A stretch of DNA of 32,000 nucleotides from Pseudomonas nitroreducens NBRC 12694 (GTDB taxonomy: Bacteria; Pseudomonadota; Gammaproteobacteria; Pseudomonadales; Pseudomonadaceae): NCBI RefSeq assembly GCF_002091755.1, contig NZ_BDAI01000001.1:1128670-1160669 (forward strand). The letters are read 5' to 3'. Position numbers and translations under genes: made by a program. The notes below the pieces were generated by a model. It did no database searches. It was not told where the DNA came from and saw only the letters and a list, made by a program, of their open reading frames with translations. Shown in pieces: positions 2,398 through 25,700 of this stretch (position 1 is the stretch's first letter; every line of letters begins with the position of its first letter).

Positions 2398-2403
2398 GAG
2401 GAC

Positions 2404-2855: not shown

Positions 2856-3062
2856 TCAGCGCTTGCCCATCGAGCGACGCGAGCCGCGCGGGTGCGGCGG
2901 GCGATACTCAGCCTTGTCGTGCGCCTTGCGGTGCTGGTAGGCGGAAGCGGCCTGCTTCTGCGCAGCAAGCGCAGCCTTGGCCAATTCTGCCAGGGAGAGC
3001 GAAGGTTGTTCCTGGGTGTTGTCCGCGTTTTCGTCGCGCGGCGGCTGCTGGGAGGACGTCAT
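2856..3062 (-). CDS. small hydrophilic basic protein, function unknown
   Basis: ATG at 3062 starts MTSSQQPPRDENADN...; 68 codons. No motif recognised and coding status is uncertain. Confidence 0.35.
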   Translation of the reverse strand: MTSSQQPPRDENADNTQEQPSLSLAELAKAALAAQKQAASAYQHRKAHDKAEYRPPHPRGSRRSMGKR

Positions 3063-3182
3063 GGGGTAACCGGATAGAAAGAGTTTGACCGGCGCACATG
3101 ATAGCCGAAGCACAGGCTTCCCGGCTGCAGTCCGCTCGGAGGAATCTCGCGAGCGGCAAGGCGTGGTCTGGCGAATTGTCCG

Positions 3183-3617
3183 TCAGCTCGGCGGGAAGAG
3201 AGTTCCCGGACGGTTTACATACTCTGTCGCTTCCCGCTCGGTGAGCACCCATATCTGGCTGATGCGACTGTCCAGGCCGACCTTGATGCCGACGAATTTT
3301 CCGGTGATGTTGGGTAACAGGCCGTAAACCATGAATCGGTTGTTCTCATCACGGATACGCACCGAAACGGACAATGGATAGCTGACGGTCCTCTTGTACA
3401 GCCCCAGCGTCATGACCCGGCGCAGCAGACTCGGTTTCGGTCGCTTCAAGGTGATCACCGGATACACCGCACTGTCGACGAAGCCCACCATCATCCCCGA
3501 GGGAATCACCCGGTCGGCCAGTGCCGGGCTGCTCAGCCCCAGCATCAGGGCCAGTGCGCCGAGCAACCGGAGTGTCCAGCGTTGCAACGAAGCGCATGAA
3601 GGTACTGCTGAAGTCAT
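3183..3617 (-). CDS. exported hypothetical protein
   Basis: ATG at 3617 gives a signal-peptide-like N-terminus (LRLLGALALMLGLSSPALA). No recognisable domain. Confidence 0.5.
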   Translation of the reverse strand: MTSAVPSCASLQRWTLRLLGALALMLGLSSPALADRVIPSGMMVGFVDSAVYPVITLKRPKPSLLRRVMTLGLYKRTVSYPLSVSVRIRDENNRFMVYGLLPNITGKFVGIKVGLDSRISQIWVLTEREATEYVNRPGTLFPPS

Positions 3618-9403: not shown

Positions 9404-10024
9404 TCAGCGACTCACAGTGTGAGGTTCGTAGCCTGGTTCGAGCACCCGCTTGGCTTCCATGTAGCTCAGGCGCCAGTAGCTCTCGTCCAGGCTGTCCACG
9501 CGGACACCACCACCACGGCGGCTGGCAGAGTGGATGAACTGTCCGTCACCGATATAGATGCCGGCATGGCTGACCCGGCCGCGACCACGGTTGTTGAAGA
9601 AGATCAGGTCGCCCGGCTGCAGGTCTTCTTTCGAGACCAGCGGGACATCCATGTTGATCATCTCACGCGTGGAACGCGGCAGGCTGATGCCCGCTTCTTC
9701 GCGGAACAGATAGCCCACGAAGCCGCTGCAATCGAAGCCGGTCCGCTCCGACTTCCCACCAAAGCGGTACGGCGTACCGATCAGCGAAAAAGCGCGGTCC
9801 AGAATGTCGGATACATGGGCAGTCGAACTGCCGTTATCGTTTTTGGCCCCCTCGTCCTGCGACTCATTCATCAGCACTATGTTGTGCTGATTTACCTGGA
9901 GCGCTGCTCGAGTGGCAGGTGCTGAAGCGACCTGGTTCGGCTGCGATTCCGGCGAATGGCTGGCGCAAGCTGCCAGCAGCAGAACGAAACTCATGGGCAC
10001 GAGGGGTGCTAAGCGTTTAAGCAT
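9404..10024 (-). CDS. NlpC/P60 (C40) peptidoglycan endopeptidase lipoprotein (paralog)
   Basis: Lipobox LLLAACAS. Core GFDCSGFVGYLF ... SHAGIYIGDGQFIHSA. I prefer the ATG at 10024 over the GTG at 10030. Confidence 0.85.
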   Translation of the reverse strand: MLKRLAPLVPMSFVLLLAACASHSPESQPNQVASAPATRAALQVNQHNIVLMNESQDEGAKNDNGSSTAHVSDILDRAFSLIGTPYRFGGKSERTGFDCSGFVGYLFREEAGISLPRSTREMINMDVPLVSKEDLQPGDLIFFNNRGRGRVSHAGIYIGDGQFIHSASRRGGGVRVDSLDESYWRLSYMEAKRVLEPGYEPHTVSR

Positions 10025-10099
10025 GGGCACGACCGTGTCTCATTAGCTCCATTTATTAGCGGGCTAATTTGCCCGCTCAATGGGACCAATGCAAGTTTT

Positions 10100-10864
10100 T
10101 TATCGCGGAATGTGACTCAGCAGGCGCGGCATAATGTCTAAGGCTCGACCCACCATTCTTTCTTCGACCACCGAACTCAGGTCGGTCAGCCCCGGGTTCA
10201 CCTCGGCGGTGAAGCCTCCAGCATCCCGAGTTCGCAGCACGGGCTCGATGATGTACGGGAAGCTCGCGGTGGTCCCGACCAGCAGAACGGCATCGAATCC
10301 CTTGCGCAGTTGCGCGTAGAGCGTATCGACGGCCTCTTCCGGCAACATCTCCTCGAACAGTACTACCGGCGGGCGCAGCACACCTGCACAGCGCACGCAC
10401 TTCGGTGGTAGCGGGCCATCCAGGTGCCCTGCCAGCTCGGTGCTTTCCAAGCCGCACGACTGGCAGTACAGCGGTGCAAGTTCGCCATGGATCTCGATCA
10501 GCCGTTCAGGCGGCGAGCCGGCGCGGCGGTGAAACCCATCGATGTTCTGGGTGAGCACCCAGCACTCCGGCTTGAGCCTCTGCAGCTCCGCGATGGCTTC
10601 ATGGCCAACGTTGGGCTGCGCGCCCAGGCAGGCCTTGCCGAGTTCCGCCAGATACTTCCAGCACAGCGCCGGATCCTTCTGCAGCATCGGCCCGGAGATC
10701 GCTACTTCGATCGGTACGCCTTCCGCCGTCCGGCCGTTGTACAGACCACCCAGGCCGCGATAGGTGGGCATCCCGGAGTCGGCGGAGAGCCCGGCACCGG
10801 TAACTACCAGGATACGTTCTGCACGAGCAAGCGCTGCGCCAGTGCGTTCGATCGCCGAGTCCAT
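10100..10864 (-). CDS. Sir2-family NAD-dependent protein deacylase
   Basis: GAGLSADSGMPTYRG NAD pocket, QNIDGFH catalytic His, zinc ribbon CQSCG...CVRCAG. AGGAGG Shine-Dalgarno. Confidence 0.9.
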   Translation of the reverse strand: MDSAIERTGAALARAERILVVTGAGLSADSGMPTYRGLGGLYNGRTAEGVPIEVAISGPMLQKDPALCWKYLAELGKACLGAQPNVGHEAIAELQRLKPECWVLTQNIDGFHRRAGSPPERLIEIHGELAPLYCQSCGLESTELAGHLDGPLPPKCVRCAGVLRPPVVLFEEMLPEEAVDTLYAQLRKGFDAVLLVGTTASFPYIIEPVLRTRDAGGFTAEVNPGLTDLSSVVEERMVGRALDIMPRLLSHIPR

Positions 10865-10892
10865 GCGCCCTCCTACGCGGCAGGACCGCGTA

Positions 10893-11564
10893 TCAGTGGT
10901 TGACCGTGAAAGCCAGCATCATGGAAATCTGGCACAGCGGACGGCCGCTTTGTTCCTGCCATTGATTAAAGGCAGCCTGCACCAACGCCAGATCCTTCTG
11001 GCTGGTGGGCGCCTTGTCGACTATCTCCTGAGCCTTGAGCGCGGCAACCACATCGTCGCCGAGGACGAACGTGTCCTTGCCGGCCATGCGCAGGAAACGC
11101 GGCGCGGACATGCCGCCCAACTGACTACCACGCTTGGCCAGCAGCTTCCAGAGACCGACGATGTCGCTGGACGGCCAACTGGCCAGGAGTTTGCCGAAGC
11201 TGCCGTATTCGCGAGCAATGTCTAAGACGAACTGGGCGTTGCGCGGCACGCTCTTGAGCTTGCCCAGGTGACGAATCAGCCGGGCGTCCTGCATCAGGTT
11301 TTCCAAGCGCTCGCCGCCCATCAGCACGACCTTCTCCGGGTCGAAGCCGAAGAAGACCTCCTCGAAGGCCGGCCACTTGGCATCCACCAGGCTGTGCTTG
11401 AGGCCGGCGCGAAAGATACGCAGGCTAATCAGCGACAGGTAGCGATCATCAGTCACCGCCGCCAGCTCGTCCGCTGACTTGGCCTGCGGAAGCCGGGCAT
11501 CCAGCGCCTCGACCGAGCCGAAGCGGTTCAGACAGTACTCATACAGCCACTGGTAATCGCGCAT
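10893..11564 (-). CDS. DNA-3-methyladenine glycosylase I (Tag)-like protein
   Basis: The segment RIFRAGLKHSLVDAKWPAFEEVFFGFDPEKV resembles the Tag/Adenine_glyco core (QAGLSW..KR..F...F..FD). The N-terminus differs from canonical Tag, so this is only a family-level call. Confidence 0.55.
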   Translation of the reverse strand: MRDYQWLYEYCLNRFGSVEALDARLPQAKSADELAAVTDDRYLSLISLRIFRAGLKHSLVDAKWPAFEEVFFGFDPEKVVLMGGERLENLMQDARLIRHLGKLKSVPRNAQFVLDIAREYGSFGKLLASWPSSDIVGLWKLLAKRGSQLGGMSAPRFLRMAGKDTFVLGDDVVAALKAQEIVDKAPTSQKDLALVQAAFNQWQEQSGRPLCQISMMLAFTVNH

Positions 11565-11582
11565 CAGGCGTCCTTGCGAGTT

Positions 11583-12410
11583 TTACAGGTTCATCACGTC
11601 TAGGAAGCGCGGCGTCGCAGTCTCGTCGATGCGCAGGCTGTTGAAGTCGAACAGGTTGCGGTCCGCCAGTTGCGACGGCACCACGTTCTGCAAGGCACGG
11701 AACATGATCTCGGTGCGGCCCGGCGACTTGCGCTCCCAATCCAGCAGCATCTCCTTGACCACCTGGCGCTGCAGGTTCTCCTGCGAACCACACAGGTTGC
11801 ACGGAATGATCGGGAACTCCTTGAGCACCGAGTAGGCTTCGATGTCCTTCTCGTTGCAGTACGCCAACGGGCGGATCACCATGTTGCGGCCGTCGTCGGA
11901 GAGCAGCTTGGGCGGCATCGCCTTGAGGGTGCCGCCGTAGAACATATTAAGGAAGAAGGTTTCCAGGATGTCGTCGCGGTGGTGTCCCAGCGCCATCTTG
12001 GTCGCGCCGATTTCGTCAGCATAGGTATAAAGAGTGCCACGGCGCAGGCGCGAGCACAGCGAGCAGGTGGTCTTGCCCTCCGGGATTTTCTCCTTCACCA
12101 CCGAGTAGGTGTCCTTCTCGATGATGTGGTACTGCACGCCGATGGATTCCAGGTAGGCCGGCAGCACGTGTTCGGGGAAGCCGGGCTGCTTCTGGTCCAT
12201 GTTCACCGCAACGATCTCGAACTGAATCGGGGCGACCTTTTGCAGGTACAGCAGGATGTCCAGCAGGGTGTAGCTGTCCTTGCCGCCGGACAGGCAGACC
12301 ATCACCTTGTCGCCGTCCTCGATCATGTTGAAGTCGGTGACCGCTTCGCCAACCTGGCGGCGCAGGCGTTTCTGCAGTTTGTTCTGGTTGACCGAAAGGG
12401 TACTGGCCAT
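11583..12410 (-). CDS. ttcA: tRNA 2-thiocytidine(32) synthetase
   Basis: PP-loop CLSGGKDS plus the CSLC and CNLCG cysteine clusters. N-terminus ([19 protein letters not shown]) is typical of TtcA. Confidence 0.93.
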
Positions 12411-12532: not shown

Positions 12533-12550
12533 TGTCGAAGAAGTGTCGAA
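12533..12550 (+). repeat. 18-bp direct repeat TGTCGAAGAAGTGTCGAA: candidate attL core or integrase arm-type site
   Basis: Matches 25566-25583 (TGTCGAAAAAGTGTCGAA) at 17 of 18 positions, in the same orientation. Each copy is itself an internal GTCGAA duplication. Confidence 0.5.
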
Positions 12551-12679
12551 GCAATTCCCTGCCTTGTTACAAGGCGCCTCCACCCCACCACCCAGTGACG
12601 GTGAAATGCTGACGCTACCATCCAGCCCATGATAAAAGTAACCAACAGGGATCAAGCAGGAAGTGAAAGGAAGGCAAGA

Positions 12680-13867
12680 ATGCTTAGCGATGAAAATTTA
12701 GAGCAGCTTCGATATAAGGGCGAGAGTGTAGACCTAGACTTCAAACAAGCCCAGTATCCTTTCTCTGGCGCAACTGACCATCAGAAATCTGAATTACTGA
12801 AAGACATCCTAGCGATGGCTAATTCGTACCGGACAGAGCCGGGCCACATACTTATTGGCTTTAAAGACCAAACCCCGCACCCCGCAGAGGTTGTCGGGCT
12901 TACTGATAGCGATCATATTGACGACGCTACCCTTCAACAGTTCGTTCATAGCAAGGTGGCCCCAAACCTTGAATTCCAATACGAAGAACGCCTGTTCGAT
13001 GGCAAGCATATTGCGATCATCACCATCCCCAAGCAACCTCGACCATTTGCACCAAACAAAGATTATGGGAAATTAAAAAAGAACACTGTCTATGTGCGAC
13101 GTGGAAGCTCAACAGACGAGGCCTCAATCACCGAAATAGCAAAGATGGCGGTACTTGACGCAGGATCATCAAAGACAGCCCAAGTCAAATTACAAATCGA
13201 CACTGATAAAAACACTCCCTTGCCCGACCACTTAACCCTTCGCTTTTTGCGTTTCGAAACTCTTCCTGACTACGAAGAAAACAACTGGATAGACATGGGA
13301 TTTGGAATAAAACGGCAAATTCCCTCCATCACCCCTGTCAATAGCGACTACTACCGCGATTGCGCGGATTACTGTAGCACTAGAAGCCGAATGGCCCTGA
13401 TCAGGCTGTCACTGTCAAATAGATCAGATTTCTCGCTAAGAGAGGTTAAGCTCGAAGTATCGTGCGCCGCAAATCAAGGACAGACTATCAGAATGTTGCG
13501 CTCTGACGATCTGCCCGACGAGCCTGAATCTAAACTAAACCTTATTCACGGCGGAATTCAAGCAGTGGTAAATCGCATGAGGCAGAGAGTCATAATAGAT
13601 CAGCGCTCTCGCGATCCGATCTGCCATATAGACCTGGAAACACTTCGACCAGGCGAAACGGGCAGAGCAGAAACCGACATCGCAGTGCTTTTCAGTGGCC
13701 CAGGTGATTACCTAATCAAGTTCAGAATACTAGCCAATGAAATATCCGCCCCCATCACCCAAGAACACACCATCACCGTAACAGGTACAACGGAAGAATT
13801 GAGCTTTAATGACTTACAAGAAATAATTTACGGAGAGGGAACTCAAATTGAAAGCCCTACCCAATAA
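12680..13867 (+). CDS. AlbA_2/Schlafen-like (putative DNA/RNA-binding) domain protein with an uncharacterised C-terminal half
   Basis: ATG at 12680 preceded by GAAAGGAAGG. The N-terminal ~160 aa show AlbA_2 hallmarks: ESVDLDFK, LLKDILAMANS, GHILIGF.D, IAIITIP, VYVRRGSSTDEAS..EI. The remaining ~230 aa have no recognisable motif. AT-rich relative to neighbours. Confidence 0.7.
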   Translation: MLSDENLEQLRYKGESVDLDFKQAQYPFSGATDHQKSELLKDILAMANSYRTEPGHILIGFKDQTPHPAEVVGLTDSDHIDDATLQQFVHSKVAPNLEFQYEERLFDGKHIAIITIPKQPRPFAPNKDYGKLKKNTVYVRRGSSTDEASITEIAKMAVLDAGSSKTAQVKLQIDTDKNTPLPDHLTLRFLRFETLPDYEENNWIDMGFGIKRQIPSITPVNSDYYRDCADYCSTRSRMALIRLSLSNRSDFSLREVKLEVSCAANQGQTIRMLRSDDLPDEPESKLNLIHGGIQAVVNRMRQRVIIDQRSRDPICHIDLETLRPGETGRAETDIAVLFSGPGDYLIKFRILANEISAPITQEHTITVTGTTEELSFNDLQEIIYGEGTQIESPTQ

Positions 13868-13923: not shown

Positions 13924-14922
13924 TTACGAACAAGCATCAAGAGCAGACAATGGATTGAGTCGAATCGCATCTTGCAGATACTCGGGCGAAAGATGGGCAT
14001 AGCGCATCGTCATATTGAGCGACGTGTGTCCAAGAATCTCTTTGAGAGCAAGTATGTTTCCGCCATTCATCATGAAGTGCGACGCGAAGGTGTGGCGCAG
14101 CACGTGGGTGCACTGGCCTCTCGGCAGCACGATATTGCATCGCTTCACCATGCGAGCGAATGCCTCTCGGCAGCTCGGGAAGCGGTCCTTCTTAGTGAAA
14201 TAGGCCTCCAGGCGGTCTTGCAGCTCCTGGGAGATCGGCACAGTCCGTACTCGCTTCGACTTGGTGTTGGCGAACACCACACAGCCCGCACGAACCATCG
14301 GCCAAGTCAGTCGTTGAGCTTCCGACCATCTCGCTCCCGTCGCCAAGCAAATCTCTGATATCAGGGCCAAGTGTGGGAACGTCGAATAGTCCCGCAGTGC
14401 AGACACCAGGGTCGCGACCTGAGCTTTCGACAGGAACGACACCACTTCCTGCTGAGGCTTTAGCGGCTTCAATGTGTCCAGGGGATTGGCGTAGTCGATG
14501 TCACCAAGTCGGCGCAGCTCGGTATAGATGGACTTGAGGTAGGAGTAACGCACGTTGATCGAGCGCGGAAGTGCCCCCTCCTCCAACTCCACCTTACGCA
14601 GTGCAACCAAGTCTGAGACGGTAAACGTCTGAGCGATGGGATTGCCCAGCTTCGCAGCGATGAAGAGCAGCATGTTCCTGCGGCGCCGTCCGCTGGTGAT
14701 CGCATGCCCGTGCAGCTCATACCAACGCTCAATGAGCTGAGACAGTCGGCGTGTGTCCTTCGGCCTGGGATTCCACTCCGGTGTCACCGCCAGTTTCGCG
14801 CGCACTGACGCTTCGAAGCGTTGGGCCTCGCCCTTGGTCTTGAACCGCTTGCGGAAGCGCTTCCCCTTGATGGGTTCGACGTCGACGAACCAGCGACCAT
14901 CCTCCAGCTTGGTAATCGCCAT
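13924..14922 (-). CDS. int: tyrosine recombinase / phage integrase
   Basis: Catalytic region ATGARWSEA ... HVLRHTFASHF ... LGHTSLNMTMRYAHL (R..HxxR..Y). N-terminal arm-binding-type domain (GRWFVDV..GKRFRKRFKTKGEAQ). TAATG overlap with the rep gene. Confidence 0.92.
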   Translation of the reverse strand: MAITKLEDGRWFVDVEPIKGKRFRKRFKTKGEAQRFEASVRAKLAVTPEWNPRPKDTRRLSQLIERWYELHGHAITSGRRRRNMLLFIAAKLGNPIAQTFTVSDLVALRKVELEEGALPRSINVRYSYLKSIYTELRRLGDIDYANPLDTLKPLKPQQEVVSFLSKAQVATLVSALRDYSTFPHLALISEICLATGARWSEAQRLTWPMVRAGCVVFANTKSKRVRTVPISQELQDRLEAYFTKKDRFPSCREAFARMVKRCNIVLPRGQCTHVLRHTFASHFMMNGGNILALKEILGHTSLNMTMRYAHLSPEYLQDAIRLNPLSALDACS

Positions 14923-16217
14923 TAGATCGCGTACCCCCGCTTCAAGTACCGATCATTTATGAGTCCAATGACGTGCCTTTCGAGGTCGCGAGTGCTGTAG
15001 CCCTTGGCGGTGTAGTGATCCTCTATCACGTGCCAGAAGGGAAGCGTTCTCCCGACCTCCAGGGCCTTTTTTGGTGGCACGCGCTCCCGTGCGATCAGGC
15101 TGGCGAACTGGCCGAGAAACATCTCGCAGTTCTTGCCGGAGAAGCCCTGAGCCGTCTTGTAGTAACGGCGGTATTCGGTGCGATCAATGAGCGGATCGGC
15201 CTCTACCTGCACCTGGGTATCCAGGGTGATGAGCGACCAGAACGGATTGAACTCCTTCGGGCTGTCCAACAGCCGGAAGTTCTCACAGGCGTAGCCCCAC
15301 AGGCCTTGCAGATGCGGGCACAGCCCTGAGTACGTGCGGCAACCGATCACCTCGCCGGAGGTCATCGTGGAGCCTTCGGAGAACTGCTGTACCACCGAAT
15401 GGTGGAAGCGGAACTCGATACGCCACACCGTTTCCAGCGGGTTGAAGGCGGGTTCGCCATCACCGAAGGGATCGCCGTTGAGGGAAGCCCAGACGTTTTC
15501 CCAGTAGTCGAGCTTGTCGGTTGCCCGAGCTTGGAGCGTCTTGTTGTAGATGCTCAGTTGCAGGCCGCTGGCCGAGCCGAACATGTACGTTTCACCGCGA
15601 CCGTAGACCGAGGCGTTGCCGTCGAACTCGATACGCTCGATGCCGCTGATTTGGCGAACGCGCCGGGACCGGCAGTGCATGCGATCCACCAAGTCAGACG
15701 GAGGGGTCCAACCCTGCACATCAAGGGCGAGGTGCACAGCGCATTGGTTGGTTTCGCAGGCAGAAAGAACGCCTTCGGCCAAGTCATCGAGCACGCCTTG
15801 CAGGATCGATGGATCGGCTCCATCCAGGGCGTGCGGGGACACCTCAATCTTGAGGTGCGGGCCAATGTTCTCCAGCTTCACATTATGGTTCTTGATCAGC
15901 AGGATCAGGCCCATATCAGCGTTCTGTAGCCGGTACTGGTAGCCGGGGTCGCGACCAAGACGGCCCTTGGCCCACTGATACCCGGCGAACTCTACGATGT
16001 CTTCCGGCTCATCAAAGATCGCCATGATCTCGGGTCGAATCAGGCCGTTGTACAACTGGCGAACCGTATCTACGCCGCAGCGCAGCAGACGCACACCGGA
16101 AAGGTCAGTGAACTCCCCTGCCCTACTGCTGAAAAAGATGCGCCCTTTGGGCGACTCAAAGAACTGCCCGTCTTCCTGAAGTACTGCGCGAATCTGGTGT
16201 TCTGCTGCCTTAGTCAT
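14922..16217 (-). CDS. Pf-type replication initiation protein (gene II analogue)
   Basis: 431-aa ORF between zot and int, the position and size of the Pf1/Pf4 replication initiator. No independent motif verified by eye. Confidence 0.75.
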   Translation of the reverse strand: MTKAAEHQIRAVLQEDGQFFESPKGRIFFSSRAGEFTDLSGVRLLRCGVDTVRQLYNGLIRPEIMAIFDEPEDIVEFAGYQWAKGRLGRDPGYQYRLQNADMGLILLIKNHNVKLENIGPHLKIEVSPHALDGADPSILQGVLDDLAEGVLSACETNQCAVHLALDVQGWTPPSDLVDRMHCRSRRVRQISGIERIEFDGNASVYGRGETYMFGSASGLQLSIYNKTLQARATDKLDYWENVWASLNGDPFGDGEPAFNPLETVWRIEFRFHHSVVQQFSEGSTMTSGEVIGCRTYSGLCPHLQGLWGYACENFRLLDSPKEFNPFWSLITLDTQVQVEADPLIDRTEYRRYYKTAQGFSGKNCEMFLGQFASLIARERVPPKKALEVGRTLPFWHVIEDHYTAKGYSTRDLERHVIGLINDRYLKRGYAI

Positions 16218-16343
16218 GATTCAAACCTATCCAATGCTATCCAATGAGTAACTGGGTTATCCGACGTGTTACAGGGTCGTCGGCCGCGCCTTCGGCCTAC
16301 CGCTCGTGCCTGGCGCTCCCGGCCGGCGGCGCGGCTCGCCGAC

Positions 16344-16454
16344 TCAAAACGGAAACGCCGCCACCGGCTGCATCACCTGCAGGGCGGTCAGAAATCCGAG
16401 CGCATAGGCGAGTGCGAGCAGCCCTAGGGCGTTGATCAGGCCATGCAGGGTCAT
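16344..16454 (-). CDS. 36-aa hydrophobic peptide coupled to zot (speculative)
   Basis: ATG at 16452-16454 overlaps the zot stop (ATGA). Translation is [36 protein letters not shown], one TM-like helix. Below the ORF-track length cutoff. Confidence 0.3.
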
Positions 16455-17746
16455 TGGGTCCTCCAGGGGCGGGCGGGGTATTCGGAGTCAGGGACGATGG
16501 TCAGCGTTGGCCCTGCGGGCGCTGCTGGGGCGACTGCGACTTCTACGGATGGTGTTGCGGGCGTCTGCGCCGGCTTGGGGAAGGCTCCAGCGCACACCAC
16601 CGTCTCGTGGTAGCTCTGGTAGAACAGCTCGGCAACGCACTCGGAGCGGGGCCGCACGCGGTAGCCGGATTCGCTCAGCTGCTGCGAGTTGAGCATCAGC
16701 CGTCGCCCTTCTGGGTCGATGATGGCGAACAGGTAGACCGTGCCCTTCTTGCCGAACTGCTCGCCTTGCTTGTCGCCCTTCACCACGCCGGCCACGACGA
16801 TCTGCCGGCCCGCGAAGGGATGCTCAGCTAGTGGAAGAGTCGAAACACTTGGTTGGCCAAGTACAGAACTAGTAGGAAGAGTGCTACGCGCAGCAGCAGG
16901 CGTTGGAGCAGGTACAGCAGCCCCTTGAGGATGAGGCGCACTAGCTGGCTGAGGATGGGCAGGATCAGTTCCTTGCTGAGCGCCACCACCGATGACCTTG
17001 AGAGGTCCCATATAGCTGACAAAGCCAATAGTGCCGGCCAGCAGTGCCAGTAGAAGAACCAACTTAGGCGACCGGAAGAGACTCTTGCCGGCCTTGGTGT
17101 CCTGGGTCTTTCCGGTGGCGGTGGACTGGTAGAGGGCGAAGGTCTGCTTTCGGATTCGCTTGTATTCGACGATGGTGCCGTCAGCGGGTGGTCGGTTGAG
17201 CTGGGCGTCATGCTGGGCCTCCTTGTACCGGCCGGGGATACCGATGACCGCGAGGTTGGAGTGTTTGTAGGCCATCTCGCAGGTCATGCGGATGTCGTCG
17301 CGGATGTAGCTGATGTTCGGGGTGGTCAGGACGATGTCCCAGTTGAAGTGCCGGTGCCGGGTCCAGGCATCCAGCCAGCCCATGGGCCGATCCGCTTCAT
17401 GGGCCGCCTCGGGGCCGCCGGGGTAGTCGAATTTCTCCAGGTCCTTTTCACGCCAGGATTTGGGGAACAAGAGTTGGGTTTCATCAAAGATCAGGAACGC
17501 GCCCCGCGGCGCCCACTGAAACCACGTGCGCATCTTGTCGAGGTCGGCCAGCGATTCGAGATCGAGGTTGATGATCTGCGCGGAGTTGGGCAGCTGCGGG
17601 AAGACGCTGTAGGCGCGCTCCAGGGTGAAGCCACGGACGTTGGTGATGATGACGCGGCCATCCTTGAGGGCCGGGACGGCATCGTCTTGGATCGCACCGG
17701 AAGTTTTGTAGGAGCCGTTGGGGCCGTGGTGAATCTTGATCGACAT
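16451..17746 (-). CDS. zot: Zot-like assembly ATPase (gene I analogue)
   Basis: Walker [11 protein letters not shown] at the N-terminus, central TM segment ([15 protein letters not shown]). GGGAGGTGA Shine-Dalgarno. Position downstream of the minor coat gene. Confidence 0.9.
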
Positions 17747-17753
17747 GATTCAC

Positions 17754-18110
17754 TCACCTCCCAATGAAGGGCACAAAGCGCATACAGAAGCGTGTGGCCA
17801 GGGCGGAGAACAGGATGTTGAGGGCCTGCGGCACGCCGAGAAATTGCAGCGCGGCAGCCAGCGGGGCGGGCAACGTGGCGTACATGGAGCGCACCATGTT
17901 GGAGACGCCGAGGCTGTCGATCAGCTCGCGGGCGACGGTGTAGCTGACATCGAGCAGGAACAGGAAACCCTGGAGCGCGCTGTACATCGCCCACTTGGTG
18001 GCAACGACGAAGCCGTCCTTGATGAAGTCGTAGATGCCTTGGGTCATGAACTCCCAGATCCATTGGAAGAACAGGATGATCTGGTCGAAAGAGCTGGATA
18101 GCCATTCCAT
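17754..18110 (-). CDS. Pf minor coat / membrane protein (gene VI-like, DUF2523-type)
   Basis: 118-aa polytopic hydrophobic protein directly between coaA and zot, as in Pf1/Pf4. Confidence 0.7.
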   Translation of the reverse strand: MEWLSSSFDQIILFFQWIWEFMTQGIYDFIKDGFVVATKWAMYSALQGFLFLLDVSYTVARELIDSLGVSNMVRSMYATLPAPLAAALQFLGVPQALNILFSALATRFCMRFVPFIGR

Positions 18111-18114
18111 GAGG

Positions 18115-19302
18115 TCACTCCTTCAAAATGGCGAACGCGGCCAGCACCGATGCCATGAACATCAGCGCGTAGCGCAGGTAGGAGAGTTTTTCTTCGTAGG
18201 CGGTGAAGCAGAGGCTGACGCTCTTCTTCCACACGGTGAAGGTGTCGCAGGGGAGCTTGCCGCCGCCCTCGCCCAGGTTCAGGTCAAACACGCCTCTGAG
18301 CTGATCAGCGTTGGTTTTGATCTTGTCGCGGAAGGTGTCTTTGGCTTCTTCGACTTTGGCGTCCCACTCTTTGAGTGCTTCGTCCCAACTGCCCTGCTTG
18401 GGCTGCTCCAGTTCCTCCGTGGGGCCGTCGCCGCCATCGGAGCCGTCATCACCGCCACCGCCGCCGGTATTGCCGCCGTCGCCGCCACCCTCACCACTGC
18501 CCGTACCAGGATTGGTGCCGCCATCGCTGCCGCCGCCGTTGTTTCCGCCACCGTTGTTGCCCCCGCCCGAACCGCTACCGCTGTTGTTGTTTTCAGCGGG
18601 GCCGCCCGGTGTGGCGACACAGGTGGTGCCTGACCACGAGTAGCCGGGAAAGCAACGATGGTCGGGATCGACATCCGGCGGGGTCTGTTGCGCATTGGTG
18701 CAGCCGATGTAGCCGTTCACCGTTTTCACGCAATCGAACTTCTTGGCAAGGTCATCCAGATAGTCCTGTAGCGACTTCTCCGGATCGGTGCCGTCGGCGT
18801 TATCCGAGGGATCGTCATTGCCGCTGGGCGACATGTCGAATTCGCACTGCGTGGCGGTGCAGTTCTGCGGCTCGCCCGGCTCGTAAATGCAGTGATCCTT
18901 GATCTCCGGATCAACCGGGATTACGGCCTGCCCATCGACGAAGGAGAACTGGACAATCTTGGTGTAGGGATCGCGGGTCTTGCAGTCATCGTCGCTAGGT
19001 GCCGGAGGATCATCACAGGCACCTGTCGCGGAGTTATAAACCTTCGGCGCAACACACTCCGTTCCATACCTGTACGTCGAGCTGTACAAGTAATCCCGAT
19101 CATCATTTTCGCCGTAGCGATAGACACACTGAGCACTCCTGCCATTAGCACTCATATCAACCCGCTTAAATCTTGGGTAGATGGCAGTGCAAGCCGCAAC
19201 AGCAGAAGGCCATTGCCCAGAGCGCCCCGAGACAGTCCAGTAATAATCAGCGGACGCGGAGAAAGACAAAAAGAGCAGCACAATAAGAAATATATGCCGC
19301 AT
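18115..19302 (-). CDS. coaA: adsorption / minor coat protein CoaA (gene III analogue)
   Basis: ATG at 19302 with GGAGA Shine-Dalgarno. Signal peptide MRHIFLIVLLFLSFSASA, Cys-rich N-domain, long Gly/Asn/Ser/Asp linker and a C-terminal membrane anchor (LMFMASVLAAFAILKE). The longer ORF-track start would run through coaB. Confidence 0.8.
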   Translation of the reverse strand: MRHIFLIVLLFLSFSASADYYWTVSGRSGQWPSAVAACTAIYPRFKRVDMSANGRSAQCVYRYGENDDRDYLYSSTYRYGTECVAPKVYNSATGACDDPPAPSDDDCKTRDPYTKIVQFSFVDGQAVIPVDPEIKDHCIYEPGEPQNCTATQCEFDMSPSGNDDPSDNADGTDPEKSLQDYLDDLAKKFDCVKTVNGYIGCTNAQQTPPDVDPDHRCFPGYSWSGTTCVATPGGPAENNNSGSGSGGGNNGGGNNGGGSDGGTNPGTGSGEGGGDGGNTGGGGGDDGSDGGDGPTEELEQPKQGSWDEALKEWDAKVEEAKDTFRDKIKTNADQLRGVFDLNLGEGGGKLPCDTFTVWKKSVSLCFTAYEEKLSYLRYALMFMASVLAAFAILKE

Positions 19303-19316
19303 ATACCTATCTCCAT

Positions 19317-19345
19317 GAAAAAAGAACCCCGCCGAAGCGGGGTCC
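19317..19345 (-). terminator. rho-independent terminator/attenuator between coaB and coaA
   Basis: On the minus strand: GGACCCCGC-TTCG-GCGGGGTTC followed by TTTTTT. A terminator after the major coat gene is classic for filamentous phages. Confidence 0.6.
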
Positions 19346-19445
19346 AGGTTCGGCACTTGCAGTGCAGTCAGAAGAATTCGCCGCAGCGGTACCCGGTGAT
19401 GAAGGCGCCGGCGAAGAACGCCCCCAACCACACCGACCAGAGCAC

Positions 19446-19697
19446 TTACGCCTTGCGCAGCATGCTGTAGATCAGGCCGGCGACCGCGAGGATGACCAGG
19501 GCACCGACGATGTAGCCGCCGATGTTGGACATGTCGCCCTTGCCGTCGGTGATGGCCTGCTCGACCGAGCTGGTGTCGATGACGCTGGCGGCCCACACCG
19601 GCATCGAGGAGGCAGCGGTGACGGTGCCCGCGATGCAGACGTTTCGGAACGAGCGGATCGGGTTGAACTTGGCGATCTGTTGTTTCATGCCTTTCAT
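19446..19697 (-). CDS. coaB: major coat protein CoaB (gene VIII analogue)
   Basis: The mature part, ...VIDTSSVEQAITDGKGDMSNIGGYIVGALVILAVAGLIYSMLRKA, is nearly identical to the Pf1 coat protein as I remember it. The leader MKGMKQQIAKF... is also Pf1-like. Confidence 0.95.
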   Translation of the reverse strand: MKGMKQQIAKFNPIRSFRNVCIAGTVTAASSMPVWAASVIDTSSVEQAITDGKGDMSNIGGYIVGALVILAVAGLIYSMLRKA

Positions 19698-19710
19698 GGG
19701 TATTTCCTCT

Positions 19711-19962
19711 CTACTTGGCTTTACGAAGAAGTGACGCGACCCAGCCAGTTAAAAGCCCCGTCACGAATGCCCCGAGAACGCCCGCAGCACCGATGCTGAA
19801 GGCCTCCAGGGAGAACCCGCCGTTGACCAGGATTTCAATTGCTCCAGCGGCCTCGGGCGGAATCAGATAGGCCTGTTGCCATTCGATCTGCTGGCAGCGC
19901 ATGAGGCCGCCCGCCGTGGACGCCCAGCTGGTGCAGACCTGAACGGCGACCACGCCTGACAT
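19711..19962 (-). CDS. small Pf membrane protein (PA0722-position)
   Basis: 83 aa with a hydrophobic Gly/Ala-rich C-terminal helix ending LLRKAK. Tightly packed between neighbouring phage genes. Confidence 0.55.
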   Translation of the reverse strand: MSGVVAVQVCTSWASTAGGLMRCQQIEWQQAYLIPPEAAGAIEILVNGGFSLEAFSIGAAGVLGAFVTGLLTGWVASLLRKAK

Positions 19963-21180: not shown

Positions 21181-21781
21181 GGCTCAACCCTCCAGCTCGA
21201 AGGGGGCGCGCACGGGGACGAAGGGAGTCGGCCTGCCGCTGTCGTAGATAACGTGCCAGTACTTCGGGGGACGGAGCGCGGGCATGTGTTTCGCGCAAGT
21301 AGAACCCCGTTCCACCCGGTACGTCGAGTGGATCGAGCGCCACACTCCCGCGACCTTGGCCATCGTGGTAACGACCGTGAAGACTCGCGTAGGGCGGCAC
21401 TCGGTACAGGGTATGCACTGGGAGGGATCGGGCTTCGCCAGTTCGCGACGGGACCAGCAGACAGAGCAGTCGCAATCCGGGGCGTGAGGTTGACGAACGT
21501 ACTTCGACAGCATCGGAAGTCACCTCGCGATCAGAAGGCAGACGCGGATGAATCACAGCGAGAGAGAGCAGGCACCGCATAGAAGGAAGAACGTCATCAT
21601 CGCGGTTGGCTTCGACGGTCAAACGTGCGGAGGCAAGCTCCATCCGTCCTTCTTCATGGAATCGGCGCGCTGCATCTGCAAAGCCATCGGCCACTGCCTT
21701 GCGCATCAGCCGGAACGACATGCGCGCAGCGGCGAGTTTTTCTCGTACACGCTGAGCGCTGAGAGGAGAAAGAAGGCTCAT
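21170..21781 (-). CDS. ORF coupled to xis; 3-prime extent uncertain
   Basis: ATG at 21779-21781 overlaps the xis stop (ATGA). The first ~90 codons look protein-like (SAQRVREKLAAARMSFRLMRKAVADGFADAARRFHEEG). The frame then stays open across the 21184-21513 gene with an R/L/S/P/G-rich, off-frame-like composition. Confidence 0.3.
   Translation of the reverse strand: MSLLSPLSAQRVREKLAAARMSFRLMRKAVADGFADAARRFHEEGRMELASARLTVEANRDDDVLPSMRCLLSLAVIHPRLPSDREVTSDAVEVRSSTSRPGLRLLCLLVPSRTGEARSLPVHTLYRVPPYASLHGRYHDGQGRGSVALDPLDVPGGTGFYLRETHARAPSPEVLARYLRQRQADSLRPRARPLRAGGLSHGL
21184..21513 (-). CDS. Cys-rich small Pf protein (possible zinc-binding)
   Basis: 109 aa with CDCSVCW and CIPCTEC clusters. Third-codon positions are predominantly G/C when read by eye, supporting this frame over the overlapping one. 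Confidence 0.55.
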   Translation of the reverse strand: MLSKYVRQPHAPDCDCSVCWSRRELAKPDPSQCIPCTECRPTRVFTVVTTMAKVAGVWRSIHSTYRVERGSTCAKHMPALRPPKYWHVIYDSGRPTPFVPVRAPFELEG

Positions 21782-22002
21782 CAGAGGCCCTCCTGTTCCA
21801 GCAGATGACGATTCAACAGCGCCACATTCACCATGACGTGAGTTCCGATCTTGTAGCGCGGGATATACCCGCTCCTGATCCAGCCCCACACGATTTGCTC
21901 GTCGTCCCCCATTCCTATCCACCTCGCAAATTCTTTCCAAGGAAGAAGCGGCGGTGCCCCTCTGAGGTCGGCGACTGAAACTTTGACTCCATCCAAATCC
22001 AT
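21781..22002 (-). CDS. xis: excisionase / AlpA-type small HTH regulator (XisF-like)
   Basis: ATG at 22002 with AGGAG Shine-Dalgarno; 73 aa. The segment LLPWKEFARWIGMGDDEQIVWGWIRSGYIPRYKIG resembles MerR/AlpA-type excisionase HTH. Divergent from the repressor gene, as in Pf4/Pf5. Confidence 0.7.
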   Translation of the reverse strand: MDLDGVKVSVADLRGAPPLLPWKEFARWIGMGDDEQIVWGWIRSGYIPRYKIGTHVMVNVALLNRHLLEQEGL

Positions 22003-22034
22003 GACCCTACTCCTAGCACTCGACAACAAGGGAT

Positions 22035-22097
22035 CACCGTGGTCCACCGGCAGATAAAACCACCGTGGTCCCATTGCTGTCAAGACCACCGTGGTCC
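22035..22097. promoter_or_regulatory. three phased operator-like direct repeats in the xis / repressor divergent control region
   Basis: CACCGTGGTCC occurs exactly at 22035-22045, 22061-22071 and 22087-22097, i.e. every 26 bp, between the two divergent start codons. Confidence 0.6.
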
Positions 22098-22109
22098 ATC
22101 ATCGCCACC

Positions 22110-22529
22110 ATGAGCAGAGAAGACCCACAATTCAAACTTCGAATGCCGCAGTCCTTGCGAGATCAGGCGGAGCAGGCAGCCAAGAGTGCAAGCAGATCGC
22201 TAAACGCGGAGCTAGTTGCGCGCTTGGAGGCAAGCTTTCTCTCGGCCGCAGAACCTGGGGAGTTGATGCGTGCCGAACGGGCAAGGGAGCTCGCTGCAAT
22301 TGCGCGCGAGGGAGTTCCTGAAGAAATTCGGAGACGTGTACTAAAAGCGATCAACCGCGCCGTAGAGCTTGGGCACAGTGCGGTAATCGTGGATTTCAAA
22401 GACCTCAAGCTCGATGGAATGGCGGAACCCATCTTTGAGGAGCTGACACGCAATATCAGCCTCGAACTGACTAGTGCAGGCTACGAGATCGAATGGGACG
22501 GAGGGGCGGCACTCTGGATCAACTTCTGA
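22110..22529 (+). CDS. ribbon-helix-helix (Arc/MetJ-type) DNA-binding protein, candidate prophage immunity repressor
   Basis: ATG at 22110. N-terminus PQFKLRMPQSLRDQAEQAAKSASRSLNAELVARLEASF is a typical Arc-like RHH. Divergent to xis across the repeat-bearing operator region. Confidence 0.7.
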   Translation: MSREDPQFKLRMPQSLRDQAEQAAKSASRSLNAELVARLEASFLSAAEPGELMRAERARELAAIAREGVPEEIRRRVLKAINRAVELGHSAVIVDFKDLKLDGMAEPIFEELTRNISLELTSAGYEIEWDGGAALWINF

Positions 22530-22966
22530 TCAATCCTGCCCGCCACTAGACATCGCTTTCCGCTCCCGCGACCGTCACAGAGCGATCCTCATTCATCGCA
22601 CCAAGGTTCCGCCTCTCCACCCGCTCTTCGGCAAGTCAGGTAAACAGAACGGCTGGCTTTCGGGACAATCTCGTCTTGCCGGGATAACGCTCCTTACCTT
22701 TCTATGAGACAAGACGCCTGCGTCAAAGCAACCTATTGCTACCAGGTAGCTCTGCGCCGCACGAGGCTCTGGAGATGGGAAATGCTCGCCCCGATAGAAA
22801 ATCCTTAAAAATCAATAGCTTTATCAAAAGACCTCTTCGCTTTACGTCGGCCATCTGCTCTGGCAAATCGAATTTTCATACAGAAAAGTCGGAGAAATCT
22901 GACCCAAAGCCCGAAAACAGCGTGTTTACTTTGGTGTATAGTTAACGCAGTTTTTGTAATCCACCT

Positions 22967-23788
22967 ATGGGCTACCTCCTCATGACGTCTCGTACTGGCA
23001 TCCTGAAAAACTCCCCTCTCGCCCACGTGATTGCTTCCGTCCGGTTTGCGCCTTGGCCGCTCATCGCCAAGCACATGGCCGACATCCAAAATGCACTGCG
23101 AGAAATCGCACCGCTGATGAGCGAGATTCAATTGGAGCAGTTGGGACCAGATGGGCAACCGCTGGGAACTCCACGTCAGTCTTGGGTGCTGATAGCTGCT
23201 GACCACAGCTTCTCTATTCAGTTTTCTTCTGACCAGATGTTGATCCACTCATATAAATACTCTCGCTTTTCCGACTTTTCGGAGAGATTTGATAGATCAA
23301 TTTCAACCTTGCTTCAACATATGGGCTTTATTGACGTCATAAACATGGGCGTTAGATATATTGACCACATAAAACCAAAAAACAACGAAGATATAGAGCA
23401 ATATATAAACAAAAAATTCCTACCAGCAACTACAAGTGACCACAAATCAATCGGCGGACAATCAGTAGCCGACTACCTGATAAGCGAAACAACTCGCTTG
23501 CGAGTTAATATATTGAGCATGCCCGGCACTCCAAATCTTCCTCAGGATGTTATCAGTGTCTCCATGATGGATAGCGCTCCATATAGACAACTTCAAATTG
23601 AGGTTCTTCAGGAAAATCAGCTTACACTTGACATGGACGCAATATTTACCCCTCCGACTCCGTCCAGAATTAAGCGCGAAGATATTCTAGAAAAGCTGAA
23701 ATATCTTCATGATGTGAACAATGCATTCTTCAGGCACCCTGAAGTCTGCTCAGAGCATGCATTTAAAGTCTGGAAAGGAGAGCAGTAA
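22967..23788 (+). CDS. TIGR04255-like family protein (function unknown); cargo gene A
   Basis: Family-like landmarks from memory: N-terminal SPLAHVIASVRF, central MGVRYIDHI, LTLDMD, C-terminal NNAFFRH. The start could instead be the ATG at 22982. AT-rich. The stop overlaps the next ATG (TAATG). Confidence 0.7.
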   Translation: MGYLLMTSRTGILKNSPLAHVIASVRFAPWPLIAKHMADIQNALREIAPLMSEIQLEQLGPDGQPLGTPRQSWVLIAADHSFSIQFSSDQMLIHSYKYSRFSDFSERFDRSISTLLQHMGFIDVINMGVRYIDHIKPKNNEDIEQYINKKFLPATTSDHKSIGGQSVADYLISETTRLRVNILSMPGTPNLPQDVISVSMMDSAPYRQLQIEVLQENQLTLDMDAIFTPPTPSRIKREDILEKLKYLHDVNNAFFRHPEVCSEHAFKVWKGEQ

Positions 23789-24480
23789 TGGATTATTACG
23801 GAACCAACTCCCAAGCCTACAGCGCACCACCCTATATCATAGATAGCAAAAGCCTATTTACCTCTGGCGCCAGTGGCAGAAAGTTTCCAAATAAAAAGCC
23901 GCCGGCTACAGCAACAATCATTTTCAATACTGGGCATCAAAACATCAGCACAGGGGCAAGGCCGTTTAATGGCGGGAGAATTCGAGTCCTCATAAATGAT
24001 GTAGTATTTGAAACATCAAAAATAGAATTTAAAGAAACCCCAATAGAATCCACATCCGTAATAGCCTCACCGACAACAACATCAGAAAAACTATCACTAC
24101 TTCAGAGCTCCTTCGGAATATCAATAACGCAAATGTCCGACATTCTAGGAGTTACAAGAAAAACAATCTATGACTGGATTGACGGATCAGAGCCAAGACC
24201 TGCTTCTTCTCAGAAGATTGATATACTTACGGAGATCTCCGAAAGGCACTCCAACATCAACTTGTCGCGCCTAAAAACAGTCTGGAACATACCAATCAAC
24301 GGAAAGTCTTTACGCCAAGTATTGGCCGAAGACTCGACAGATAGGACTGGCGTGCTAGAAGATGCCTCTGCTAAAATCGCTGCGCTTGCCCCCAAGCTTG
24401 GGGCTCCAAGCAAGCCATCTAAGGCAAAGATAAGAATGGCTCACCTTTCTGATATTGACAGGGCATCAGATGTCGGATGA
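23788..24480 (+). CDS. XRE-type helix-turn-helix protein with an orphan N-terminal region; cargo gene B
   Basis: HTH ISITQMSDILGVTRKTIYDWIDG at about residues 120-142. The ~100-aa N-terminal segment looks low-complexity or disordered. The C-terminal tail (NIPINGKSLRQVLAEDSTDRTGVLEDA) is reminiscent of Xre/MbcA/ParS-type antitoxin C-domains. Confidence 0.72.
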   Translation: MDYYGTNSQAYSAPPYIIDSKSLFTSGASGRKFPNKKPPATATIIFNTGHQNISTGARPFNGGRIRVLINDVVFETSKIEFKETPIESTSVIASPTTTSEKLSLLQSSFGISITQMSDILGVTRKTIYDWIDGSEPRPASSQKIDILTEISERHSNINLSRLKTVWNIPINGKSLRQVLAEDSTDRTGVLEDASAKIAALAPKLGAPSKPSKAKIRMAHLSDIDRASDVG

Positions 24481-25366
24481 AGGTTTAGTTGAAGCTATCC
24501 GGAACAATGGATGGTGGCAGGGATCAGTGATCTCGGCCGCCGAGCTCAGTTCCTATCTGGAGCTGCCGGAAGGCATTGAGTTCCTAGTGGTCGCCTCTCA
24601 GACATGCAATCTCTACAACTTCAGTTTGACAAATATTCCTGTTTTCGAGCTGGTCGGCGCAAAACGTCTGGATAATTGTAATAACGCGTATACGAAAGGT
24701 GATCACCCTCGCATTCTACACCTAGAGTCAATCACTCAAGATCAAGAAACAATACTCCTCGAGGTCAATATATTACAACGATATTGGCTAGATCGCAGGA
24801 TATTAGCTTCCACATCTCCTATAGCATCTATTCGTGACTCATGCGACCTTCACGATCCAGACATCATGAAAAAGCAATGGCTGGACAAGTTTTCAGGATG
24901 GCTGGCCCGCAGCTATACCCGAGTAACCTTACCAGATGAATTTAATACCGCCCTCGAAAAGGGTCGATTGAAAAAATACATAAACAGTAAGCTAACGGCC
25001 GATGCAGACTCGCTACATGGTATATATTTTAACATCTCTCACGATAGCGAAGACCCGTATGATGGCTCGCTTGGCCTGATGCCGCCTCCCTACCTCTTGG
25101 AAATCACAGTAGTAACAAACTCCGGCGTTTCTTCAGAGTCTTTAGAAACCCGCATGAAACAGGAGCTTTTCGAGAGAAAAAAGAATGGAGATCAAGAGCC
25201 TCTTCCTTCTATCGCAGACACATGCCTTGCACAGGGTATTACCATCTCTGAACTAGGAATCATTGGCCGAACGACAGATGACTTGACACTTGGAGAGCTT
25301 AGCAACCTTACAAGATACTCCATGGTAGATCACCTTTCAGACTCAAAATTCTCCTCACCTGAATGA
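24470..25366 (+). CDS. orphan 298-aa protein; cargo gene C (candidate effector)
   Basis: ATG at 24470 lies 11 nt inside the end of gene B (the ORF-track start at 24455 is TTG). No catalytic or domain motif recognised by eye. Same AT-rich composition as genes A and B. Confidence 0.68.
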   Translation: MSDEGLVEAIRNNGWWQGSVISAAELSSYLELPEGIEFLVVASQTCNLYNFSLTNIPVFELVGAKRLDNCNNAYTKGDHPRILHLESITQDQETILLEVNILQRYWLDRRILASTSPIASIRDSCDLHDPDIMKKQWLDKFSGWLARSYTRVTLPDEFNTALEKGRLKKYINSKLTADADSLHGIYFNISHDSEDPYDGSLGLMPPPYLLEITVVTNSGVSSESLETRMKQELFERKKNGDQEPLPSIADTCLAQGITISELGIIGRTTDDLTLGELSNLTRYSMVDHLSDSKFSSPE

Positions 25367-25565: not shown

Positions 25566-25583
25566 TGTCGAAAAAGTGTCGAA
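25566..25583 (+). repeat. 18-bp direct repeat TGTCGAAAAAGTGTCGAA: candidate attR core or integrase arm-type site
   Basis: Matches 12533-12550 at 17 of 18 positions, in the same orientation. Confidence 0.5.
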
Positions 25584-25700
25584 ATTGCTGATCAGTGCTA
25601 TCCAAAGCAAACCAACTCGAGCTCCATGAAAGCCCCCTCCGTTCCTAATCTATCCGGAGCTTTCCAACGCTATCCACTCAAAAAGCCTGTCTAGCTTTTC

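Follow-up and report, generated by a model that had tools for sequence, protein, structure and literature searches.

In type II toxin-antitoxin (TA) systems, the classic arrangement places a helix-turn-helix (HTH) gene first, overlapping the gene that follows. Among the other described systems closest to the locus considered here, the TA module PfiT/PfiA is known cargo at the ends of Pf prophages (PMC12328805), and KKP (PfkA/PfkB/PfpC), a tripartite system of Pf, reportedly defends against other phages (PMC11341870). Rst_3HP ('hp + hp + hp') is a validated system from a P2 hotspot of Escherichia coli; its domains are unknown and it protects against P1 (Rousset et al., 2022; PMC9122126). The present locus is a trio of adjacent genes, termed A, B and C, in a 32,000-nt stretch of DNA (the window) from Pseudomonas nitroreducens NBRC 12694, where it is carried by a Pf-type prophage. 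In our estimate there is an even chance that A-B-C constitutes a mobile defence or addiction (TA-like) module, in which B is the regulator or antitoxin, C the effector and A an obligate partner; we infer these protein roles. The module is a real feature, clearly bounded and conserved, and a solid candidate for a new system. The trio and the element upstream of it are as follows.

22923-22943, plus strand: operator-like tandem direct repeat TGTTTACTTTGGTGTATAGTT, composed of TGTTTAC, TTTGG, TGTATAG and TT in that order, 39 nt before the start of A
22982-23788, plus strand: gene A, encoding a TIGR04255-family protein of 268 amino acids (aa); a start at 22967 would give five residues more
23788-24480, plus strand: gene B, encoding a 230-aa protein with an Xre/Cro-type HTH; its start overlaps the stop of A
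24470-25366, plus strand: gene C, encoding a 298-aa protein of an unannotated superfamily, the putative effector

A check of the open reading frames (ORFs) in the window recovered three plus-strand ORFs at 22967-23788, 23788-24480 and 24470-25366. At the junction of A and B, TAATG at 23786-23790 leaves one base common to the stop of A and the start of B, and the start of B is preceded, about 7 nt in the 5' direction, by the Shine-Dalgarno sequence AGGAG. C starts with the ATG at 24470, 11 nt inside the end of B, whose stop is at 24478-24480. An earlier reading of this DNA, made from its letters alone (the original prediction), had taken the three genes for one operon, and both the overlapping junctions and the tight coupling found in every related locus bear this out. 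It had given the ORFs and junctions exactly, but had begun A at 22967. A most likely begins at the second ATG, at 22982, which gives 268 aa, because the start context CTCATGAC around this ATG is kept in divergent loci with proteins only 50-60% identical, A homologs are 265-272 aa long, and both NCBI and one other pipeline call A at 268 aa. An antisense ORF at 22805-23248 (minus strand, 147 aa), which runs across the region upstream of A and into the 5' end of that gene, is probably spurious. The three genes were also rightly described as AT-rich: the GC contents of A, B and C are 0.451, 0.444 and 0.457, respectively (0.44-0.46), compared with 0.58-0.62 in the core genes of the phage and about 0.63 in the flanking host DNA. 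The exact protein sequences of A, B and C were found in P. nitroreducens GCA_900188285.1.

More than 40 loci allowed the order A-B-C to be checked, and all of them keep it. When 185,579 species genomes were scanned with patterns derived from C, 18 loci were found; all 16 of them that have upstream DNA show homologs of A and then B ahead of C, on the same strand. In every related locus the stop of A and the start of B are separated by no more than 12 nt or overlap, and the start of C lies within the end of B; in Pseudomonas citronellolis, independent gene calls give the same 11-nt overlap of B and C. Thus, tight gene coupling is a general trait of the module and not a local accident. Distant relatives of C, with 21-28% identity, were found in Gloeocapsopsis, Mesorhizobium and Meiothermus, in each case on a plasmid, and in an Acinetobacter record; in all four, the relative comes after a gene annotated as 'TIGR04255 family protein' and a gene for 156-189 aa. 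With A as the query, all eight plasmid matches have a B-like gene and then a third gene downstream. A narrow profile hidden Markov model (HMM) recognized homology to B in the middle gene of all eight plasmid loci, and the third gene passed the narrow C model in seven of the eight, with two of them (L036 and L037) only marginal (E 0.0016 and 0.0098); the third gene of the remaining locus (L038) was missed by this model and was aligned to C by hand. The trio order is also conserved in viral contigs and metagenome contigs. Overall, the trio ranges over Gamma-, Beta- and Alphaproteobacteria, Desulfobacterota, Cyanobacteriota, Deinococcota and Acidobacteriota. The original prediction had asked whether the three genes co-occur in mobile or defence islands, and the answer is clearly positive, with A-B-C syntenic across genomes, plasmids and viral contigs.

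The N-terminal region of B (about 95 aa) is variable and partly of low complexity. It is followed by a strongly conserved HTH of the Xre/Cro type, LSITQLAELFGVTRKTVYDW, with the pattern LSITQxxxxxGVTRKTxYDW, then by a conserved middle block, RLKxVWNIPxxGxSF, and an acidic C-terminal tail, AHLxDIDRxxD. Homologs of B were taken from the trio loci, a word-indexed homolog search having given only five proteins. HTH families of Pfam were matched by 21 of 25 B homologs (best E 7e-7), and an antitoxin Xre-like HTH family was matched by five of the 25. Searched against the PDB, the B profile matched Xre-type structures with marginal E-values. The Xre HTH behind an orphan N-terminal region had been anticipated and stands, but the C-terminal tail that had been likened to Xre/MbcA/ParS antitoxins does not. 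This tail assignment was rejected, as no MbcA/ParS C-terminal domain was found in the 25 homologs, and only HTH families were present among the Pfam families listed for them (25 of the 26 matched).

The strongest indication of how the operon might be regulated comes from the repeat upstream of A. The half-sites of TGTTTACTTTGGTGTATAGTT, TGTWTAS and TGTATAG, lie about 12 nt apart, and the second half-site holds a -10-like TATAGT at 22937-22942. The element is unique in the window and found matches in none of 100 shuffles. With 0-2 mismatches and at 24-70 nt before A, it recurs in loci of Pseudomonas, Methylobacter, Paraburkholderia, Desulfocapsaceae and Gallionellaceae, and the Caballeronia and Ralstonia loci carry an upstream element with 3-4 mismatches. 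Near-family loci that share the 21-nt element encode proteins that are only about 40% identical; on this comparison, conservation is far higher in the element than in the coding sequence. In 11 of 12 metagenome matches and in all five viral-contig matches of the exact 21-mer, gene A comes next, and B and C come after it if the contig is long enough.

Distant lineages carry other tandem repeats at the same place, with a period of 12 in eight of nine loci and of 11 in the remaining one (L038). These include GTGTAAAGTGA (two copies) in Meiothermus, ATGTAMACTT (three copies) in Gloeocapsopsis, TGTGTAAT (two copies) in Vibrio and TTTCACTTTAC (two copies) in Rhizobium. Repeats matching at no fewer than eight of nine positions were present in seven of the nine distant loci, compared with a mean of 0.44 and a maximum of 3 in dinucleotide shuffles. 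The recognition helix of B also differs in those lineages (SRQALYDW, SRTTLYKW, TRKTLHNW and TRQSLYNW). In Mesorhizobium, the helix ERKTVYSW is closest to the near-family TRKTVYDW, and the near-family repeat is kept. Since the repeat unit changes along with the recognition helix in distant lineages, B probably binds the repeat and autoregulates the operon. No palindromic operator was found upstream of A in the window, and a terminator scan of the region gave no convincing plus-strand terminator.

A degenerate form of the motif behaves differently from the exact element. In viral contigs, 38 of its 43 matches lack the trio; 25 of these 38 lie in one homologous phage gene on the opposite strand, three in other long ORFs and about ten in iteron-like arrays. 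Thus, it is the exact 21-mer, and not any TGTATAGTT tandem, that marks the trio. The 25 contigs from IMG/VR (L041, L044, L046-L048, L050, L053 and others) belong to two clusters of related AT-rich phages with a GC content of 0.30-0.38, which share a gene for 600-670 aa containing the reverse complement of the degenerate motif. As these contigs share one homologous gene, the raw motif matches are not to be counted as independent. Iteron-like arrays of GTGTATAGTT were seen in viral contigs having no homologs of A, B or C, namely L057 (about 1390-1570, six copies), L068, L073 and L051; their unit resembles the half-site of the trio operator and belongs to unrelated elements.

Protein C has no match by sequence in Pfam, NCBIfam, PADLOC, PHROG or the PDB. 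A word-indexed search found relatives in 130 clusters, and an exhaustive profile search extended these to a superfamily of 1,393 clusters at 50% identity, of which 621 were found at E <= 1e-10. C had been regarded as an orphan without a recognizable motif; the lack of a library family match stood, but a protein with relatives in 1,393 clusters is not an orphan. Members of the superfamily are nearly all 255-290 aa long and share a conserved core in the N-terminal ~195 residues. No fusions of C-family proteins were present among the top 150, and none of 62 diverse members gave a meaningful Pfam match. By these searches, the superfamily of C is an unannotated one of about 1,400 clusters without a Pfam model. 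Only W15, Q17, C46, E60, Y149 and R151 are invariant across it, and G18, P57, R81, W144 and P155 are nearly so. H84 is invariant in the near family and lost in distant members, and because it is not kept outside the near family, the idea that C is a Cys-His protease is disfavoured and was rejected.

The structural model of C (predicted local distance difference test, pLDDT, 88; predicted template modelling score, pTM, 0.64) comprises an N-terminal beta-barrel-like domain to about residue 125, a helical segment with RSYTRVxLPDEFN and a C-terminal alpha/beta domain, and leaves the conserved tail RYSxVDHLS disordered. A fold search of C against the PDB and BFVD returned nothing significant. MazF-mt1, E. 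coli MazF and CcdB from the PDB, and entries named 'PemK-like protein' and 'Endoribonuclease' from BFVD, recurred near the top; these matches to MazF, PemK and CcdB reached a probability of up to 0.92 and a target-only template modelling (TM) score of about 0.5 over about 135 residues of C. This sub-threshold resemblance to MazF and PemK is no more than a lead, and it is the sole direct hint that C might be a toxin.

The lead bears on a simpler explanation, namely that B and C are an ordinary type II TA addiction pair that stabilizes its carrier, with A only a linked accessory protein or chaperone that senses nothing. The order and overlap of B and C are typical of type II TA systems, some B homologs match the antitoxin Xre-like HTH family, and TA modules such as PfiT/PfiA are known at Pf prophage ends; the weak MazF-like lead would fit as well. 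However, A is never missing and is coupled upstream of B-C in every locus across phyla, and C, with about 300 aa and two extra domains, greatly exceeds classical type II toxins in size. The constant presence of A in loci with B and C points to a protein that is functionally required and not optional, and the plain addiction pair is accordingly considered quite improbable.

Protein A, which had been said to look like the uncharacterized TIGR04255 family, is a clear member. Against the NCBIfam model it scores 105.1 bits (E 5e-30) where the curated cutoff is 30, and its residues 13-269 cover positions 2-251 of the 252 in the model, that is, the full length. Homologs of A also carry the TIGR04255 name in NCBI and JGI annotation. 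No Pfam family was found for A, and no solved relative was found in the PDB by single-sequence or profile search. The AlphaFold model of A (pLDDT 90.8, pTM 0.87) consists of two repeated beta-alpha-beta4-alpha halves. Residues R21, Q36, R40, G123-x-R125-Y-x-D128, D189 and D217-x-D219 are conserved across phyla, which suggests a ligand-binding or catalytic site. The top fold matches, all of them poor, were AdoMetDC, CYTH/VTC, phosphagen kinases and Bet v1. An AdoMetDC/prozyme fold gave the best match (E 6e-4) and was not assigned, because the TM score was only 0.27-0.30 despite this E-value. The names TIGR04255, IPR026349 and CHP04255 are mentioned neither in the searchable literature (8 million papers) nor in the supplements of two hotspot studies.

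Taken together, these features would be compatible with the following mechanism. The trio may be a self-contained, horizontally mobile module that is expressed in the lysogen as cargo of a Pf-like inovirus. Copies of the HTH of B, arranged head to tail, would occupy the two half-sites, which have a period of about 12 nt and overlap the -10-like hexamer, and so autoregulate the operon, as the covariation of helix and repeat suggests. B and C, which place the HTH gene first and overlap by 8-11 nt, would form a pair in the style of antitoxin then toxin, with B restraining C. C might act as the effector through a composite site formed by Q17, C46, E60 and R81 of the beta-barrel-like domain and Y149 and R151 of the helical segment, a proposal that derives from conservation. 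A, as the obligate third partner, could bind or convert a ligand with its conserved Arg/Asp set and serve as the sensor or modulator that decides on the release of C; this is the weakest step. A broader form of the proposal would make the trio a phylum-spanning immune system with a TIGR04255 protein as sensor or signal handler and an Xre-type B that represses through a co-evolving direct-repeat operator and restrains an effector founding a superfamily of about 1,400 clusters with a Cys/Glu/Tyr/Arg site. We hold this version tentatively, as a possibility rather than an expectation.

The surroundings of the trio in other genomes argue for its mobility. In Pseudomonas juntendi and one viral contig, the trio directly adjoins a P2-type portal and large terminase, in the position of the old/tin hotspot. 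In five loci it follows a P4-type primase and integrase, as in P4-like satellites; one locus is an integrase/Abi_2/DUF3987 island, and another an island with a large serine recombinase. Trios on plasmids adjoin PIN, VapBC and PrlF/YhaV modules, tyrosine integrases, insertion sequence elements and a DNA methyltransferase with DUF262. Within 5 kb of the trio lie genes for a type I restriction enzyme, a HerA-type ATPase, an HKD+Snf2 helicase and a TIR protein, and a pooled census of neighbouring ORFs gave strong matches to the models PD-T4-1, PDC-S02, PDC-S13, AbiEii and AbiD. By its recurrence in such places in unrelated genomes, with Methylobacter as the exception, the trio falls into the class of defence-island or mobile-element hotspot cargo. 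The closest relatives of the trio in this window are not on inoviruses, which indicates that the module moves between carrier types. Genes for the His-Xaa-Ser radical S-adenosylmethionine (SAM) maturase system HxsD/HxsB/HxsC lie within a few kb of the trio at 260-3476 of a Pseudomonas-like contig (L081) and at 9631-12250 of a Mesorhizobium plasmid (L032); the two loci are unrelated, and these genes may be a recurrent island partner.

The copy in the window lies in a prophage with a Pf1-like inovirus core on the minus strand, which includes Zot, CoaA and Rep genes; the stretch 14755-19962 is about 80% identical to Pf1, Pf4 and other Pf phages. The following features define the element around the trio.

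12533-12551, plus strand: left copy of the attachment-site (att)-like repeat, TGTCGAAGAAGTGTCGAAG, 17 of 19 positions identical to the right copy
13924-14922: integrase, part of the Pf-type prophage
21781-22089: excisionase-like gene, part of the Pf-type prophage
22065-22529, plus strand: Arc-like repressor, on the same strand as the trio
25566-25584, plus strand: right copy of the att-like repeat, TGTCGAAAAAGTGTCGAAA, 200 nt past the stop of C

The pair TGTCGAAGAAGTGTCGAAG/TGTCGAAAAAGTGTCGAAA gives the only two matches within the window at no more than three mismatches. These imperfect direct repeats bound an element of 13.05 kb between a host PP-loop ATPase gene and a DnaJ-related gene, the latter starting at 25759. 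As the right copy lies beyond the stop of C, the trio is inside the element. The position that had been proposed for it, between the immunity repressor gene and the right prophage end, agrees with the repressor at 22065-22529 and the repeat at 25566-25584, and position and GC content together confirm that it is foreign, AT-rich cargo, lodged in the accessory slot on the repressor side of a Pf-like prophage. Pf4-type phages are usually described as integrating at tRNA genes, unlike this element; a tRNA gene search of the window found none, and an Rfam search of the window gave no match. A second AT-rich cargo gene (GC 0.465) lies at the integrase end of the prophage, at 12629-13867 on the plus strand. 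It encodes 412 aa with a Schlafen AlbA_2 domain (Pfam, 3e-16), and its N-terminal 150 residues give a match (3e-15) to PDC-S50, which PADLOC lists as a candidate defence family. With this gene at one end and the trio at the other, both ends of the element carry putative defence cargo.

The position of the trio next to the immunity repressor, on the same strand, would also fit a role in the life cycle of the carrier, such as lysogeny control or, as with KKP, element-specific superinfection exclusion, or else a role in anti-defence. Regulatory cargo of Pf that also affects other phages has a precedent in KKP (PMC11341870). However, the same module is present on an inovirus, P2-like phages, P4-like satellites, integrative islands, plasmids and a chromosomal site free of such elements, and the closest relatives of this copy are found off inoviruses. 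A module shared by unrelated carriers cannot belong to the regulation of one carrier in particular, and a carrier-specific role is judged very unlikely.

The same neighbourhoods bear on whether the function is immune at all. A and C could instead be enzymes whose substrate is a small molecule or a nucleic-acid base, in an accessory or stress module, with a ligand-responsive B, that is merely spread by mobile elements. Both proteins conserve enzyme-like constellations of polar residues, the best, though poor, fold matches of A are to ligand-handling proteins (AdoMetDC, CYTH/VTC, phosphagen kinases and Bet v1), the Methylobacter trio stands alone among housekeeping genes, and His-Xaa-Ser radical-SAM genes are neighbours in two loci. 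On the other hand, the neighbour census revealed no recurring transporter or metabolic partner; the recurrent neighbours are integrases, P2 and P4 phage genes, TA modules and defence genes, and the distribution is sporadic across six phyla and the composition foreign. A non-immune module is therefore regarded as unlikely, while deserving some weight.

Several results weigh against a mobile defence or addiction module. In Methylobacter, the three genes stand by themselves as an insert between uvrD and a DUF1614 gene, and neither mobile-element nor defence genes are visible nearby. In searches against PADLOC-DB v2.0.0, A and C matched nothing and B gave only a weak match to a generic HTH model (mad1, E 0.0011), which also upholds the original statement that no named system has this gene set. 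No fold match of A was convincing, all TM scores being 0.34 or lower. The matches of C to MazF/PemK folds were all sub-threshold (E >= 0.025), and hhalign of the C superfamily profile against a small alignment of MazF, Kid and EndoA sequences returned a probability of 0.4%; because this profile-profile comparison was negative, MazF/PemK stays only a lead for C. A simple sigma-70 scan of the region predicted no promoters, which makes the promoter assignment uncertain. Finally, guilt by association cannot separate defence from addiction, anti-defence or other accessory functions.

Should the trio prove to act in defence or addiction, TIGR04255, a family that is curated yet wholly uncharacterized, would gain a function. 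The trio would also add a new effector superfamily of about 1,400 clusters without a Pfam model, and would represent a system missed by current annotation tools in Pseudomonas, methanotrophs, rhizobia and cyanobacteria. A common cargo pool would then serve Pf-type filamentous prophages, P2 hotspots and P4-like satellites. The near-invariant 21-bp putative operator, together with the conserved recognition helix, may offer a tractable case of regulator-operator co-evolution. For such work, the genes are delimited exactly, and candidate catalytic residues as well as the sequence of the putative operator are available.

Compared with known systems, the trio shares with Rst_3HP a set of three genes without recognizable domains and the portal-side hotspot of P2, and differs in protein size (337, 357 and 227 aa in Rst_3HP; 268, 230 and 298 aa in the trio). 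Identity with Rst_3HP, represented by the pFR109 proteins, was rejected, as HMM scores did not exceed 2 bits and the best BLASTP match, in a three-sequence database, had an E-value of 0.02 over 29 residues. Similarly, the trio resembles PfiT/PfiA, KKP and the PA0715/PA0716 slot of Pf4 in being non-structural cargo at a Pf prophage end, where those modules are expressed in lysogens. Its proteins are unrelated to those of the Pf modules and contain no kinase, phosphatase, reverse transcriptase or ParE-like domain, and the trio is not restricted to inoviruses. With MazF, C may share a strand followed by a polar loop, as its VVxSQxC[ND] recalls VVLSxxxYN in our own reading, but C is three times larger than MazF, PemK and CcdB and conserves other residues (Cys, Glu, Tyr and Arg).

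In comparison with TA systems, B and C are an adjacent pair with an 11-nt overlap and a supported HTH in B, as is expected of a type II pair with a DNA-binding antitoxin. A recognized toxin superfamily is lacking, C having no match in Pfam, NCBIfam or PADLOC and only sub-threshold fold matches. The Xre-RES, MbcTA and ParST systems do not correspond either, as neither an MbcA/ParS domain in B nor a RES or ART match in C was found. The likeness is closer to Xre-type type II and tripartite TA systems, such as HigBA-SecB ('TAC') and paaR-paaA-parE, in which an HTH gene overlaps the gene of the next, larger protein. As in the tripartite systems, a third gene is strictly linked, carriage is by prophages and plasmids, and autoregulation through an upstream repeat is probable. 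In contrast to them, C belongs to no known toxin family and B has no known antitoxin neutralization domain; A is neither SecB-like nor a known regulator, and the HTH gene is the middle gene and not the first. The operator of the trio is a direct repeat, whereas dimeric Xre antitoxins usually use a palindrome. Although it fits none of the named systems tested, the module appears, on this comparison, to most resemble an Xre-regulated or tripartite TA or abortive-infection system.

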